A program made the translations under genes and the position numbers. Of a stretch of 64,000 bases of DNA, positions 28,132 to 60,262 are shown in pieces. The notes under the pieces are model-generated. The model was not told the origin of the DNA. It did not search any database and saw only the letters and a program-made list of their open reading frames with translations. Position 1 is the stretch's first letter; every line of letters starts with the position of its first letter. Source of the DNA: Octopus vulgaris (Eukaryota); the NCBI GenBank assembly GCA_951406725.2, contig OX597814.1, positions 187,984,001 to 188,048,000 of the forward strand, in the 5' to 3' direction.

Positions 28132-28594
28132 TCTCTTTTACTCTTTTACTTGTTTCAGTCAGTTGACTGCGGCCATGCTGGAGCACCGCCTTTAGTCGAG
28201 CAACTCCACCCCGGGACTTATTCTTTGTAAGCCCAGTACTTATTCTATCGGTCTCTTTGCCGAACCGCTAAGTAACGGGGTCATAAACACACCATCGGTT
28301 GTCAAGCAATGCTAGGGGGACAAACACAGACACACACATACACATACATACATATATATACACATACATATATACGACGGGCTTCTTTCAGTTTCCGTCT
28401 ACCAAATCCACTCACAAGGCTTTGGTCGGCCCGAGGCTATAGTAGAAGACACTTGCCCAAAGTGCCACGCAGTGGGACTGAACGCGGAACCATGTGGTTG
28501 GTAAACAAGCTACTTACCACACAGCCACTCCTGCGCCTATGGCCACTCCTGCGCCTATGGCCACTCCTGCACCTATGGCCACTCCTGCGCCTAT
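28132..28594 (-). mobile_element. SINE family 1 with a four-copy 18-bp tandem at its 5' end
   Basis: Reverse complement of family 1; gccactcctgcgcctatg repeated about 4 times at 28524-28594. Confidence 0.9.
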
Positions 28595-28961
28595 ATCTTT
28601 TCTTTTTCTTTTTCTTTCCTTGTTTTTACCCCTCTGCGAAGTAATTTTATTTAATTCTTTCGCAGGAAGGGCTAGTTCGATGAGTAGTGTCCTGCCCTCC
28701 CCTTCGAAACACGCTGGAGTTGAACTAGGGACAGCTGATGAAGGGGTTTTTTCCTTGTGTAGTTTGTCGCGTCCTCTGTTTTTCGTTGTAAAAAAATGGT
28801 CCGTTCCATGCTTGTTTTTACGTTTTCGTTTCTCGTTGAGTTCTACGTCTATTTGTGGTGTCCTGTACTCACGTATATATATTTATATATGCATGTATAT
28901 ATACATGTAGATGTAGGTACGTACATATATGTATGTATGTATGCATATATTTTATTCATTA

Positions 28962-29038
<77 letters not shown>

Positions 29039-40551: not shown

Positions 40552-40586
40552 GTTTCTGACGAAGAGTTCCGCTCGAAACGTAAAAC
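40552..40586 (+). ncRNA. Minimal type I hammerhead ribozyme motif
   Basis: GTTT-CTGACGA-A-GAG(TTCCG)CTC-GAAAC-GTA-AAAC; lies in element 40475-40688 flanked by (TA)n on both sides. Confidence 0.8.
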
Positions 40587-41008: not shown

Positions 41009-42239
41009 ATTTAGAGTTTATCGGAGGAATATAGACAGGAGAAAAAGGTAAAAGGAAAAGAAAAAGGAAAAATGTTCGTTAAGCGCTTAGGCTTATATTT
41101 TTGTGTCCTTCAAGGTTCCACGTGTGTCTACATTTCTTCAGTTAGATGAATGGAGCAATAAGTGGGGAAAATGTCTAGTTGACCGGCGATGTTAGTCGAA
41201 AGAGTTATACCTGTTAGTAATATCGGTGTCGTTAATTGTGATAAATAACGGTGTTTCCTCACACGTGATCAGCGGCTATCGTTCTTTTTTCCTCTCGCTT
41301 CACAAGAGATAAGACCTACTTTTGCTTGTCTCTTGTCATAGCTCCTTTCTCCAGCGTTCACCACTTCACCTCGTTATGGCTTAATAGCCCTCACCGTTTG
41401 TGTTTTACTGTTTTGTCCTTACTGTCTTGTTTTTTTGCTACCACTTTAACCCTCCGCAAAAATTCCAGATTTTATTTAATTTGCTTTGCGGGAAGGACTC
41501 TTTTAACGAAGTTACGTCTTGTCCCTACCATCGGAACGCGGAGTAGGTAAAACAGGGAGCTACTGATGAAGGGTTTGTCCCTTAATGTTGCCTGTCTCGT
41601 TTCTCTATTTGTTTCTTTCGTTGTCCCCCAAAAGTTCGTTTTCCATGTTTTTGTTTTTTTATGTTCTCGTCTTTCATTTTGTTAACATTTTTTGACGTCC
41701 TGTACCCATATATGCATGTATATATACATATATATGTAGGTTTGTACATATATGAATGTATATATGCATATATATATATTATTGGTTTATATATATATAT
41801 ATATATATATATACTCTTTACTCTTTCTCCTTTACTCTTTTACTCATTTGACTGCGGCCATGCTGGAGCACCGCCTTTAGTCGAAGAAATCGACCCCAGA
41901 ACTTATTCTTTGTACTTATTCTATCGTTCTCTTTTGCCGAACCGCTAAGTTACGGAAACGTGAACACATCAGCATCGATTGACAAGCGATGGTGGGGGAC
42001 AAACACAGACACACAAACATATACACACACACATACATACATATATTTATACATATATACGACGGGCTTCTTTCAGTTTCCATCTACAAAATACACTCAC
42101 AAGGCTTTGGTCTGCCCGAGGCTATAGTAGAAGACACTTTCCCAAAGTGCCACGCGGTGGGACTGAACCCGGAACCATGTGGTTGGTAAGCAAGCTACTT
42201 ACTACACAGCCACTCCTACGCCTATATATATATATATAT

Positions 42240-42317
<78 letters not shown>

Positions 42318-42688
42318 TATACACACACACACATAGATGCATAAATCTTATTCGCAATGAAGAGCTGCTTTTTCAGCTGCTCTATCCTCAAAGCACCAAA
42401 CTTAACACACCAACAGCTGGAAGACATTATATTTTCTTCTGCTTTTGCACAATGCCTAAATATTTGTAAATTTTTTATTGTAATTTTATTATAAATTTTC
42501 TTCAACAGCGATACATAAATGGAATTAGAAAATTAAGTGTTCGTGCATTTTGAAAGAAGTCTTTTATTGTGGCTTCCTTCCAAAACAGAGTCATCATGTG
42601 AGCGTTAATATGAAACTTGGGTCGTTGTTGGAAATAGAAAATTTTTTTAGGAAAACTATAGTAATAAACTTCGCATAAAATATATTGT

Positions 42689-47398: not shown

Positions 47399-48871
47399 GG
47401 AACGAGATAACGAGTAGGGTGGTCACTCTCGCCCGGCAATGGGCCGAGAGGAAACTGTCCCTAAAAGGTCGGGCGGAGGTGGCGAACACGTACATCGCGT
47501 CCATCATCTACTACCGCCTGACCGTCGTACCTTGTCCCGACCCTACCATCACCAAACTAGAACGCATTCTCTTCCGCTTCTTGTGGAAAGGATGCGTCCC
47601 GATGGTCAGGTGATCCATTTGCTGTCAACACCCGTTAAAAGGAGGGTTGGGCATGCCGTGGTTGATGATGCGCAGACACGCGCTGAGACTGCGACATCTC
47701 CAGCTCTATGTAGACGACGGTGAACAGGTGTGGTCGCCGTTTGTGAGGCACGCTTTTCCGCAGCTCGTCTCCATGACAGAACTGCAGTCGTGGATCAAAA
47801 AGAGGCCGAGGAAGGGCGAATGGTACCGCGAGTGTCGCGTTGCTCTCAAGTAACTATGCCGTCCCGGGTCGACCTTGAGTGACTTCAACACAAAAAGCAT
47901 TCTATAGGGGATTAGTGGAGGGGAGGTACGACGACGATTTTGGGGCGAACCTGGACGTCGACGAGGAATACCGGACCCGCCTGTTTGAGACGACTTTCGG
48001 GCCGGGACCTATGGACAACTTCCAGAGATCCCTGGCCTGGCAGGGCTGCCGAGAAGCGCTACCCGTTCGGGATAAGCTCTATAGGCATGGCTCGAGAAAC
48101 TCGAGGCCGACCTGCCAGAGATGCGGTCAGAGCGACGAAACCGTTCTGCACGCAATCGCGCAGTATCCAACAATCTCTGACCTGTGGGCTTATGTCGAAC
48201 GACTGCTGTCACGTGTGGGACGAGTCGGTTTATCAGCTGAGTCTATCGTTAATATCGTCACGCCTCCTTCCTTCAAACGGGAAGGAAGAGCTATTTTTAT
48301 CATACTTGTGGCTATGGCGAAAGAATGTATCTGTTGGACACGCCTGAAAGGATTAGAGACAAACACTTTCCTTTCTGGTCAATCTCTCATCAACTTCTTC
48401 AAGTATCACTTGAAAAGGAAAGTGAGAGTAGAGAGGCAAGTTTTGTCTAGTGAATGTTTAAAAAAAAGATGGGTGAATGTAGCAAGGATGGCACGTATGA
48501 ATGGCGAAGCCACCTTGACTATGATCCTATGAACCGAAAAAATTAATACAGAGAGTTGCTTATTTGTAAAAAAATATAACATGTGACTTCATTGACCGAG
48601 GTTACCGTGGTCTTTTCCGTTGGCTTTTCTTTCCACGGGTAAACCTCACCTGTCCTCCCCTTTACACTTTAAATTGACATTTCTGTGACAACGACCTCTA
48701 TTGATCGATTTTTTCTTTTTCTTTTTTTTTTCTTTTGCTTTTCTCTTTCTTTCCATTTACGATCCCTTTTGATCGAAAACCAACCCACCTTTTTTTTTTA
48801 TCTCCAAATAGAAAAGCTCTACCTTGTAATTTGTCCCGTCTGTGTGCAGCCCTGTGTGGCTAATAAAGAAA
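47399..48871 (+). mobile_element. 5'-truncated Tx1/L1-clade LINE (RT C-terminus, CCHC-type zinc knuckle, 3' UTR) inserted in (TCTA)n
   Basis: W..RKLSLKGRA...GGLGMP...ALPVRDKL...CQRCGQSDETVLH motifs; stops at 47611 and 47851 plus a frameshift; (TCTA)n-type repeats on both sides. Confidence 0.9.
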
Positions 48872-54136: not shown

Positions 54137-56792
54137 TTTGTAATTCTCTTTGCTACTCTCCTTAACATTGAGCCCTTTGTGATTAACATTGAGCCTTTTG
54201 TGATTAACATTGAGCCTTTTGTAATTCTCTTTGCTACTCTCCTTAACATGAGCCTTTTGTAATTAACATTGTGCCTTTTGTAATTCTCTTTGCTACTCTC
54301 CTTAACATGAGCCTTTTGTAATTAACATTGTGCCTTTTGTAATTCTCTTTGCTACTCTCCTTAACATTGTGCCTTTTGTAATTCTCTTTGCTACTCTCCT
54401 TAACATTGAGTCCATTGTGATTAACATTGAGCCCTTTGTGATTAACATTGAGCCTTTTGTGATTAACATTGAGCCTTTTGTGATTAATATTGAGCCTTTT
54501 GTAATTCTCTTTGCTACTCTCCTTAACATGAGCCTTTTGTAATTAACATTGTGCCTTTTGTAATTCTCTTTGCTGCTCTCCTTAACATTGAGTCCTTTGT
54601 GATTAACATTGAGCCCTTTGTGATTAACATTGTGCCTTTTGTAATTCTCTTTGCTACTCTCCTTAATATTGAGTCCTTTGTGATTAATATTGAGCCTTTT
54701 GTGATTAACATTGTGCCTTTTGTAATTCTCTTTGAAACTCTCCTTAACATTGAGTCCTTTGTGATTAACATTGAGCCTTTTGTGATTAACATTGTGCCTT
54801 TTGTAATTCTCTTTGCTACTCTCCTTAACATTGAGCCTTTTGTAATTCTCTTTGCTACTCTCCTTAATATTGAGTCCTTTGTGATTAACATTGAGCCTTT
54901 TGTGATTAACATTGTGCCTTTTGTAATTCTCTTTGCTACTCTCCTTAACATTGAGCCTTTTGTAATTCTCTTTGCTACTCTCCTTAATATTGAGTCCTTT
55001 GTGATTAACATTGAGCCTTTTGTGATTAACATTGTGCCTTTTGTAATTCTCTTTGCTACTCTCCTTAACATTGAGCCCTTTGTGATTAATATTGAGCCTT
55101 TTGTGATTAACATTGTGCCTTTTGTAATTCTCTTTGCTACTCTCCTTAACATTGAGCCCTTTGTGATTAATATTGAGCCTTTTGTAATTAACATTGTGCC
55201 TTTTGTAATTCTCTTTGCTACTCTCCTTAACATTGAGCCCTTTGTGATTAATTTTGAGCCTTTTGTAATTAACATTGTGCCTTTTGTAATTCTCTTTGCT
55301 ACTCTCCTTAACATTGAGCCCTTTGTGATTAATATTGAGCCTTTTGTAATTAACATTGTGCCTTTTGTAATTCTCTTTGCTACTCTCCTTAACATTGAGC
55401 CCTTTGTGATTAATATTGAGCCTTTTGTAATTAACATTGTGCCTTTTGTAATTCTCTTTGCTACTCTCCTTAACATTGAGCCCTTTGTGATTAATATTGA
55501 GCCTTTTGTAATTAACATTGTGCCTTTTGTAATTCTCTTTGCTACTCTCCTTAACATTGAGCCCTTTGTGATTAATATTGAGCCTTTTGTAATTAACATT
55601 GTGCTTTTTGTAATTCTCTTTGCTACTCTCCTTAACATTGAGCCCTTTGTGATTAATATTGAGCCTTTTGTAATTAACATTGTGCCTTTTGTAATTCTCT
55701 TTGCTACTCTCCTTAACATTGAGCCCTTTGTGATTAACATTGAGCCTTTTGTGATTAACATTGAGCCTTTTGTAATTCTCTTTGCTACTCTCCTTAACAT
55801 TGAGCCTTTTGTGATTAATATTGAGCCTTTTGTAATTCTCTTTGCTACTCTCCTTAACATGAGCCTTTTGTAATTAACATTGTGCCTTTTGTAATTCTCT
55901 TTGCTGCTCTCCTTAACATTGAGTCCTTTGTGATTAACATTGAGCCCTTTGTGATTAACATTGTGCCTTTTGTAATTCTCTTTGCTACTCTCCTTAATAT
56001 TGAGTCCTTTGTGATTAACATTGAGCCTTTTGTGATTAACATTGTGCCTTTTGTAATTCTCTTTGCTACTCTCCTTAACATTGAGCCTTTTGTAATTCTC
56101 TTTGCTACTCTCCTTAATATTGAGTCCTTTGTGATTAACATTGAACCTTTTGTGATTAACATTGTGCCTTTTGTAATTCTCTTTGCTACTCTCCTTAACA
56201 TTGAGCCTTTTGTAATTCTCTTTGCTACTCTCCTTAATATTGTGTCCTTTGTGATTAACATTGAGCCTTTTGTAATTCTCTTTGCTACTCTCCTTAACAT
56301 TGAGCCTTTTGTAATTCTCTTTGCTACTCTCCTTAACATGAGCCTTTTGTGATTAACATTGTGCCTTTTGTAATTCTCTTTGCTACTCTCCTTAACATTG
56401 AGCCTTTTGTAATTCTCTTTGCTACTCTCCTTAACATTGAGCCTTTTGTGATTAATATTGAGCCTTTTGTAATTAACATTGTGCCTTTTGTAATTCTCTT
56501 TGCTACTCTCCTTAACATTGAGCCCTTTGTGATTAACATTGAGCCTTTTGTAATTCTCTTTGCTACCCTCCTTAACATTGAGTCCTTTGTGATTAACATT
56601 GAGCCCTTTGTGATTAACATTGAGTCTTTTGTAATTAACATTGAGCCTTTTGTAATTCTCTTTGCTACCCTCCTTAACATTGAGTCCTTTGTGATTAACA
56701 TTGAGCCCTTTGTGATTAACATTGAGTCTTTTGTAATTAACATTGAGCCTTTTGTAATTCTCTTTGCTACTCTCCTTTACATGAGCCCTTGT
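54137..56792. repeat. Compound minisatellite of 21-bp and 39-bp units with higher-order structure
   Basis: Units gtgattaacattgagcctttt and gtaattctctttgctactctccttaacattgagcctttt. Confidence 0.97.
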
Positions 56793-57730
56793 GGTCAACA
56801 GTAAAAATCGTTATTCGGTTACACTAGTAATTAACTGTTCGTATGCTGTTTTATCACGTTCTCTTTACAGTCGTCGGTTTTCAATAATATAACATAAACT
56901 TATGAAGAGGAATCATTTATAAAATCGAGTGTCAACAAATCAGATTCAGTACTTAAAGATTTATTTCTTCGAATTTCTGTGTTAAATCAGAGATCATTTG
57001 TGATACAGAAGATCTTAGGGACATTCTATTTTCTGAAGAATTTCTTTAATATTTTTTTCGGGAACACAAAAAGTGTAGCTCTTTGCCTTGGTTAACATAC
57101 GAATGTAAAGAAATGTTTTAGGTAAAAGATATTTCATTCAAGAATTGCTTATTTATGAAGTGAAATACTACACAGCTAAAACATTCTAAAAAGTGATTAG
57201 TTAATGAAATTCAGCCATAATGCCTTTTCTTTTGTTTACCAAAGTCTAAGTGTGTTTCTTTGAATGACTCATTTACGAGTGCAGAATGTCAAAGCAATAA
57301 CAAAAAGAAAGCTCATTTATGCATGTGTGATTGCAATTTTGTTCTTTTATTAGAATGCGTTTTTTTAATGCTTGAAATATTTTTTGCTCTGTGCCTGGTT
57401 GCAGAGAGCAGTCATCAGCGTATCCTCTTAGCAACTGGCTATTTCACACAACAGTCACATAACAGCCATTATACCAGCGCTCTAATGCAGCAGTTTATGA
57501 TGCATGAAAGAAGAAGACATGTACTTTTTTTTAATGTATAATCTTTGTTTCTTTAGAACCATTAATAGATTAGTTAGCTTGCCGTTGGATAACAATACAA
57601 TGCTAAAACAAACAAACAAAATAAACAACACAAGGCACGGCAGCTCTTAAAAGAAAGAGTAACGTCCCTTGATAGCATATTTGAGAAGAAATGACGTCAG
57701 TGGAGTGATAATGATGGTACTTGTTTCTGG

Positions 57731-59369: not shown

Positions 59370-59839
59370 AAAGACACTCGTTGTTATATTCTTGTTGTTT
59401 GTATTTGTAATTGTGTACATGTTCTCATTTTTGTCCTTGTTGCCGTATACATTCGCTAGCTTTCTTACAAAAAACTAATGCTCTTAGCTTAGACCTTTTT
59501 TGGAGGCAACCAGATTGAACTGTCTCAAGTGTAACTGCCCGAAACGTTAACGACATCTGGTCACTTCACTGAAGAAAGAAGGCCACGAATGGCCTGTCCT
59601 TTTTTACCCTGTCCTAATTATTGTTTCTCTTGTCCGCCTTTTGTATCGTCTATATGTCCGAATGCTTTATTGTCCTCTATTGAGTATTTGTCCCATTTTT
59701 ATATTTATATATACATACAGCGGTGTACGTACACACTTGTGCTCACCTTATAGTAAGTGCATATCTAAATTTTGTACGACTCTTTTACTCTATCTTTTAG
59801 TTCCCCCATACTTTCTTCCTCTTTTCTTTTTCTCGCTAC

Positions 59840-59881
<42 letters not shown>

Positions 59882-60262
59882 TTTCTCACACTTTTGCTCC
59901 TCAATTATTTCCTATGTCCCTGCCTTTAGGTTTTCACTTCATACACGCCTGCTCAATTTGATTCATTCTTAGTCGAAAGACACCTGTTGTTATATTCTTG
60001 TTGCTGCGTACCATGTTCTCTGATTTTGTCCTTGTTGCCGAATACATTCACTAGGTTTCTCACAAAAAATCTAATGCTCTTATCTTAGACGTTTTTGGGA
60101 GCAACCAGATCGGACTGTCTCAAGTGTAACTGCCCGAAACGGTAACGACATCTGGTCACTTGACTGAAGAAAAAAGACCACAAATGATCCGTCCTTTTTT
60201 TCCCTGTTCTTCTAATCGTTGCTTCGCCTGTTCGCCTTTGCATCGCCTATGTGTCCGAATGT
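59370..60262 (+). mobile_element. Direct-repeat (pseudo-LTR-like) element: two ~290-bp units about 600 bp apart around a (TC)n core
   Basis: 59370-59665 is similar to 59976-60262. Confidence 0.7.

Follow-up and report, generated by a model that had tools for sequence, protein, structure and literature searches.

A predicted hammerhead ribozyme with a core probably split between A9 and G10.1 in non-coding retroelements of the octopus genome

The window, by which we mean the whole 64-kb stretch of octopus DNA analyzed here, holds four copies of an RNA motif in elements of three families (F1, F2, and two tandem units of F3), all four of them where a preliminary description had placed them (Table 1). 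The 3' end of the F1 copy lies in a (TA)n tract about 276 nt beyond the predicted cleavage site, and the copy adjoins the tandem tail of a SINE-like repeat; such repeats, which presumably resemble octopus SINEs, are abundant in the window (e.g., at 28200-28590 and 41860-42340). A comparison of 30 copies per family established GAAAC and CUGAnGA as the family state, in that order, as had been reported for the window, and indicated that the window copies are partly decayed. The F2 copy has lost A13 (now G) and has mismatches in stems I and II; judging by these changes it is probably inactive, and its GGAAC, previously read as a loop variant, is a decayed GAAAC. In the first F3 unit the 10.1-11.1 pair and stem III are broken; in the second, the core and stems I and III are intact and stem II has a single mismatch. 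Elsewhere in the window are a long tandem array of related 21-, 39-, 60-, and 81-nt units (54162-56840), with open frames of a repetitive peptide on both strands, and a 217-amino-acid open frame (47879-48532, minus strand) that resembles the C-terminal zinc-finger region of a LINE ORF2.

Table 1. Element copies in the window and parts of the predicted motif in the F1 copy
Feature	Position	Strand	Remarks
Family F1 element copy, 5'-truncated	28609..28967	+	95% identity by BLAST with the 790-nt tandem unit from L023
F1 stem V, 5' strand (CCCCT)	28629..28633	+	pairs with AGGGG 28742-28746, directly 3' of CUGAUGA
F1 hairpin P0	28634..28665	+	no linker to stem V (5' side) or stem II (3' side)
F1 stem II, upstream strand (GAAGG, G10.1 first)	28666..28670	+	pairs with CCTTC 28701-28705
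F1 stem a, 5' strand	28672..28678	+	pairs with 28722-28728; equivalent of the SGC stem I-II interaction helix
F1 block S: stem III strand, GUC triplet, stem I strand	28686..28697	+	one C-A mismatch
F1 predicted cut	between 28691 and 28692	+	placed by analogy and from the pile-up of 5' ends
F1 block G: stem II strand, GAAA (28706-28709), stem III strand	28701..28713	+	
F1 stem I strand, CUGAUGA (28735-28741), stem V 3' strand	28729..28746	+	
Family F2 element copy	41255..41809	+	motif 41450-41573, predicted cut 41518/41519
Family F3, first unit	59370..59889	+	motif 59459-59583, predicted cut 59524/59525
Family F3, second tandem unit	59907..60262	+	motif ~60054-60178, predicted cut 60119/60120

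All elements of a hammerhead core are present in the conserved fold, arranged non-circularly with the cleavage site first, then GAAA, then CUGAnGA, an order known as type SGC. Read 5' to 3', the motif begins with a stem V strand, hairpin P0, a stem II strand, a 1-nt linker, a stem a strand, and a loop; continues with a stem III strand, UH, the predicted cut, a stem I strand, a 2- to 5-nt linker, and the second stem II strand joined to GAAA and the second stem III strand; and closes, after a further linker, with the stem a strand, the stem I strand joined to CUGAnGA, and the stem V strand. Stem III is thus formed by the bases 3' of GAAA with a 5' strand ending in UH, and stem I by the bases 3' of UH with those immediately 5' of CUGAnGA. 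The circular order of types I, II, and III (UH, CUGAnGA, GAAA) is absent, which bears out the statement in the preliminary description that the fold is of none of these types. As in type II hammerheads, GAAA precedes CUGAnGA, but type II is cleaved between these two words and the octopus site lies 5' of GAAA. A type II reading of the motif was dropped, as stems I and III could not be drawn by eye around a cut at the type II position. An Rfam scan matched no family at the motif; the 126 matches at E<=5 were mostly microsatellites hitting miRNA models.

Conservation was assessed in 24 representatives, each one real copy of a subfamily judged distinct, of which 11 came from one and 13 from the other of two clades (F1/F2/F4/F6 and F3/F5). 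Across 24 aligned sequences, 21 of them these representatives or their loci and three further window copies (49% mean column identity), C11.1, G12, A14, A15.1, U16.1, CUGA, and the final GA were invariant, with the limitation that the core words, though not U16.1, had served as the selection pattern. Position N7 varied (T, A, or G), H17 was C, A, or U in 23 of 24, and the 15.2-16.2 pair alternated between C-G and U-A. The core nucleotides, including the A15.1-U16.1 and G10.1-C11.1 pairs, were present, the latter as G-C in 20 of 24. Stems I, II, and III flank the core and covary: stem I had a mean of 4.4 of 5 Watson-Crick pairs within a representative versus 2.2 with swapped strands, and stem III 4.6 versus 2.3, the cleavage site having been picked to maximize stem I and III pairs inside a 7-nt range. 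Stem a connects stems I and II at their far ends, with 5 or more of 6 pairs in most of the representatives listed. Nested folding recovered V, P0, a, and III for F5, the pseudoknots being beyond its scoring, and nested-only z-scores were unremarkable (-0.46 to -1.63). On these sequence grounds the core is almost certainly that of a hammerhead in SGC order. The earlier suggestion of a permuted or pseudoknotted hammerhead variant was apt, although the drawing that went with it lacked the catalytic stems I, II, and III as well as the cleavage site, and the SGC order had already been published (PMC10085705). From that drawing, stem a and the hairpin upstream of it held up. Its crossing stem x did not, consisting largely of G-U pairs and mismatches outside the window copies (best 6-mer pairing per representative) and overlapping the true stems I and III; its stem c was perfect only in the window copies, with 3 or 4 mixed pairs elsewhere; and its hairpin after CUGAnGA is an alternative to the better conserved, long-range stem V.

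Copies of the motif lie in dispersed repeats throughout the 2.8-Gb genome, where each of the three window families gave more than 2,600 first-look candidates. The pattern CGAAA-N22-30-CTGANGA matched 39,868 times, against 6,214 for a backwards control, and the first 40 listed matches comprised 28 family members and 12 chance hits; roughly 28,000 to 34,000 copies would keep both core words. A descriptor restricted to the order site, GAAA, CUGAnGA, run on the loci under study, yielded three further families unprompted, and searches from these gave F4 (98 to 99% identical copies), F5, and F6; the listing of pattern matches added more subfamilies. Some families are young, with near-identical copies (98 to 99%). 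A looser S-G-C descriptor was poorly specific, with 9 matches in 400 kb of arbitrary genome, only 2 of them family members, versus 1 to 4 in five shuffles; 8 matches of this descriptor antisense to PLE ORFs were set aside as chance.

The repeats are non-coding tandem units with one hammerhead motif each, 790 nt (F1), 846 nt (F4), or 830 nt (F5) long and about 42% T on the ribozyme strand. Neither units nor arrays hold an open reading frame, the longest frame starting with M being 101 amino acids. Their 3' ends are fixed, nearly all running into (TA)n: 23 of 25 F4 copies end at +278 and 14 of 19 F5 copies at +149, and F1 ends fall into classes between +275 and +343. Their 5' ends are variable, through truncation. 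A fixed 3' end with a truncated 5' end is the established pattern of target-primed retroelements, and the ribozyme strand would therefore be the RNA strand of such an element. Inverted copies were seen at 5 of 29 F1, 0 of 25 F4, and 2 of 19 F5 loci. One F5 array (G000:C6:85539757-85545597, L189-L195) has at least seven nearly identical 830-nt units and one internal deletion, as expected from rolling-circle copying.

The (TA)n target, fixed 3' end, 5' truncation, and inverted and tandem copies are marks typical of, although not exclusive to, a non-autonomous element mobilized by a Penelope-type enzyme, and from them such a helper appears probable. The genome does carry intact 781-amino-acid RT plus GIY-YIG frames, apparently of a young family, in elements ending in (TA)n; their CX4CxxC linker is Neptune-like (a CX2-5CxxC linker is given for Neptune and Nematis elements in PMC8557442). 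Thirty of 6,136 GIY-YIG candidate loci, dominated by one family, were examined. Sixteen had a minimal type I hammerhead variant of their own, with U3-A8 (UUGAUAA), which lies about 100 nt before the (TA)n junction (e.g., L097 ~2770), and none of the 30 had the split-core motif as a sense-strand terminal repeat; the units are therefore not the terminal repeats of that family. Of the description's "Penelope-type terminal repeat," the Penelope part has some support, in that the units behave as non-autonomous passengers, and for the terminal repeat the 30 loci provided no instance. Two of the 30 loci do hold a split-core unit, one probably by chance insertion in (TA)n. At the other (L107 ~1130), a unit truncated at its 5' end three bases before CUGAGGA is fused, inverted and with no microsatellite between the parts, to a 5'-truncated RT/GIY-YIG fragment, which suggests a template switch. 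It seems unlikely that the ribozyme is as described here while the unit is the terminal repeat of an unsampled autonomous element or is moved by another class of retrotransposon; the small, one-family sample of GIY-YIG loci leaves room for that account, against which stand the arrays without ORFs and a tblastn search in which no unit matched the RT-GIY protein.

The feature that sets the motif apart is the position of its stem II. The partner strand lies upstream of the cleavage site rather than 3' of CUGAnGA, in a module that consists of a 5-nt stem II strand, a single nucleotide, and a stem a strand and that is located 5' of the cleavage block. In 16 of 24 representatives this upstream strand is fully complementary to the 5 nt preceding GAAA, versus 9 of 490 swaps, and four representatives, which are single decayed copies, form fewer than four pairs. 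A structure-blind MAFFT alignment of 24 sequences (21 representatives or their loci plus three further window copies) was also scored; it shifts block S by two columns between the clades, and because of this misregistration only stem II was counted on it, the other stems being scored from anchors by script. Stem II was paired in 91.7% of 120 cells, with 46 double changes and a covariation of 0.896. None of 500 shuffles was as high on these three measures, and two type-count measures were not above the shuffles; the representatives are related to each other, and the shuffle counts are therefore not probabilities. Slid controls paired only 26 to 45% (at most 44.5%). The versions of the stem include GAAGG/CCUUC, GAACG/CGUUC, GGGCA/UGCCC, GGCUG/CAGCC, GGCCG/CGGCC, GCGCU/AGCGC, GCCCA/UGGGC, and GAGCA/UGCUC, and a compensatory change occurs even within family F2 (L038, L043, L056). 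Stem II thus very probably uses the upstream strand.

The strand that follows A9 pairs instead with the one immediately 5' of hairpin P0, forming stem V, which has 4.4 of 7 pairs within a representative, 3.1 over all swaps, and 2.5 in swaps between clades. P0, which was located without regard to stem V, adjoins stem II at G10.1 with no linker in 20 of 24 representatives. As aligned, the architecture corresponds to the published SGC ribozyme with an opening at the one-nucleotide bulge that lies between A9 and G10.1. V and P0 could stack end to end, keeping A9 beside G10.1 as a four-way junction in which the stack replaces the covalent A9-G10.1 link, and stem a would take the role of the stem I-II contact. 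Five of 24 representatives have a weak stem V (1 or 2 of 7 pairs), and in the youngest F5 subfamily it opens with two U-U mismatches; on balance, V and P0 are somewhat more likely than not to be needed for activity.

Two other accounts retain the core but not this assembly. Dimeric cleavage is known for Penelope hammerheads, and the core could be put together between two units or molecules; alternatively, V and P0 could be dispensable and the A9/G10.1 break a simple nick, as the imperfect stem V of young F5 copies might hint. The strained geometry of stem III, whose strands lie only 3 to 10 nt from stem a, lends some weight to both; strain of this kind has also been flagged for some SGC ribozymes in PMC10085705. 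Against them, the linkers of V and P0 have zero length in most representatives, V covaries between the clades, and there is no palindromic stem III to drive a dimer, so that we regard these accounts as quite improbable. Still harder to sustain is an ordinary type SGC ribozyme in which the stem II partner is the strand immediately 3' of CUGAnGA, past one extra nucleotide, and the upstream pairing is an off-state or switch. Published SGC ribozymes have that extra nucleotide (PMC10085705), and in the F1/F2/F4/F6 clade the downstream strand can make 3 to 5 pairs with the GAAA-side strand, mostly with two G-U. In the F3/F5 clade, however, it makes 0 to 3 of 5, and it reaches at most 3 Watson-Crick pairs of 5 in all 24 representatives, against an upstream strand that is so often perfect and that preserves G10.1-C11.1; we rate this reading as very improbable.

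If the split-core ribozyme cleaves, its products might be recorded in the genome as 5' ends. For F5, the 22 nt that immediately follow the predicted cut have 4,743 exact matches, from which 40 places were taken without selection, in list order (3-42). In five of these copies the sequence starts exactly at the bond, the C before it being missing; five others have their ends scattered over the 99 nt upstream; and the remaining 30 continue intact through the site. Five exact starts have a probability of about 2e-8 under a uniform model and of an estimated ~2e-4 when the higher truncation rate just downstream is used. In other subfamilies, four copies have their 5' end no more than 1 nt from the bond (L245, L256, L284, L290). 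Junctions with (TA)n, which were listed without a fixed position and counted by eye, tell a similar story. Of 26 F5-clade loci, 8 have the junction at the bond and 15 have it between +3 and +11, whereas positions -1 to -10 are empty and the other 3 are at -11/-12, five of the 8 exact junctions being loci of the 40-copy sample; in the F1/F2/F4/F6 clade, 19 of 22 lay at or after the bond. Over both clades, 42 of 48 junctions are at or just 3' of the bond. TA microhomology influences these positions, many of which are at +7 to +10. A smaller cluster of 5' ends (L236, L262, L267, L294), which may be due to TA microhomology, was observed in the loop that separates stem a from stem III, 9 to 12 nt 5' of the predicted cut.

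The simplest cause of the pile-up would be templates with a ribozyme-made 5' end, and cleavage in vivo, read in this way from genomic ends, is highly likely. With 30 of 40 F5 copies crossing the site, most templates would therefore be uncut or religated. A non-catalytic fold (the x/a/c pseudoknot or a protein-binding element), with RT stalling as the source of the pile-up, deserves almost no credence: stem x can form with G-U pairs in F1 to F3 and many 5' ends fall 3 to 11 nt after the site rather than on it, but conservation tracks the hammerhead core exactly, the F5 junctions have a sharp edge (of 26, none within the 10 nt 5' of the bond and 8 exactly at it), and an RT arriving at that point would already have removed the partners of the upstream strands. 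Sequencing contigs that span the F5 stretch came from two runs, presumed to be RNA, and from a DNA run labeled as a second species; no run catalogued as RNA contained the stretch, and the one raw DNA run contributed a single read.

Taken together, we put the probability at roughly 0.8 that the motif is a self-cleaving hammerhead, its core likely split between A9 and G10.1, in a non-coding retroelement likely mobilized by a Penelope-like RT. In the proposed life cycle, multi-unit transcripts would be cut to ~800-nt monomers, and stems V, II, a, and III would clamp both monomer ends, favoring ligation into a circle; a circular intermediate seems somewhat favored. A borrowed RT-endonuclease would nick (TA)n, prime at the UA-rich tract 150 to 340 nt after the cut, and copy toward the 5' end. 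Cut linear templates would give copies starting at or just after the cut, and circular or uncut ones would give copies crossing it, plus tandem arrays.

Type SGC, described with in vitro cleavage by Eckert et al. 2023 (PMC10085705), is the closest relative. The two share the block order S, G, C, the core nucleotides, a short stem I-stem II linker, and a stem II of 5 bp, after which come a single nucleotide and a helix linking stems I and II at their far ends. In the HRIMA-1 rows of that paper, CUGAUGA is followed by an extra U, the 5-nt stem II strand, one nucleotide, and the interaction-helix strand. In the octopus motif, by contrast, the stem II and interaction-helix strands both lie 5' of block S, and V and P0 occupy the A9/G10.1 position. 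CUGAnGA and its adjacent stem strands were assumed there to be inseparable, as an indivisible block C, and six permutations were proposed; with no stem II strand 1 or 2 nt after CUGAnGA, the octopus motif does not have block C intact. The published SGC motifs came from metatranscriptomes, with none given in that text for genomes of known organisms, and the octopus motif has ~30,000 chromosomal copies in an animal. A literature search covering few subscription journals found the SGC order only in PMC10085705 and no description of a split core or of the motif in octopus; PMC13725137 mentions hammerhead variants with additional helices, citing other papers, and these may overlap with the split core.

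In their behavior the units resemble the non-LTR retrozymes of animals, which are type I, tandem, and Penelope-derived according to PMC7229834 and bioRxiv 10.64898/2026.07.22.740005: both are non-coding tandem units with one hammerhead per unit, occur as monomers to multimers, and have a proposed dependence on Penelope elements. Non-LTR retrozymes are, however, defined there by type I hammerheads, and the octopus units (~800 nt), as far as their sequence tells, carry a pseudoknotted split-core motif instead, which type I descriptors would miss. With the pseudo-LTR hammerheads of Penelope elements (Neptune-type; PMC8557442) they share a ribozyme 130 to 340 nt before a (TA)n-joined 3' end, 5' truncation, and inverted copies; those hammerheads are minimal type I motifs beside an RT-GIY-YIG ORF, unlike the ORF-less octopus units, and the sampled autonomous family of the octopus genome likewise has its own type I variant rather than a split core. 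Also listed in that paper are "half-core" cases (Naiad), whose second half lies to one side or the other, and the role of the ribozyme in Penelope-type elements is called unclear there.

A hammerhead topology outside the six proposed permutations, in an animal genome, is what we consider likely to be new here. It would overturn the rule that CUGAnGA and its stem II strand are inseparable; descriptor searches all build that rule in, so that split-core ribozymes would have been invisible so far, and Penelope-type elements recorded as having no hammerhead may carry motifs of this kind. Non-circular permutations, so far a matter of uncultured RNA agents, would now be present at very high copy number in an animal chromosome, the accumulation of 5' ends at the predicted cut would document in the genome how a ribozyme acts during a Penelope-type life cycle, and a helix-tolerant position within the core would offer a new handle for engineered ribozyme switches. 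We lean, with some reserve, toward the reading that joins all of the following: a seventh natural hammerhead topology beyond the six block permutations, its core opened at A9/G10.1 and rebuilt by a four-way junction; a multiply pseudoknotted cage, active in vivo, that clamps the cleaved ends for self-ligation; and a motor for ~30,000 circular-RNA retroelements that would be the first non-circularly permuted ribozyme in a eukaryotic chromosome.

Hammerheads of the minimal type I form are also present in the window, at 40556 (plus strand) and 33298 (minus strand), where they have a palindromic stem III and belong to another Penelope-type repeat. A related copy, whose core is CUGUCGA, occurs at two further loci (L069 and L073).
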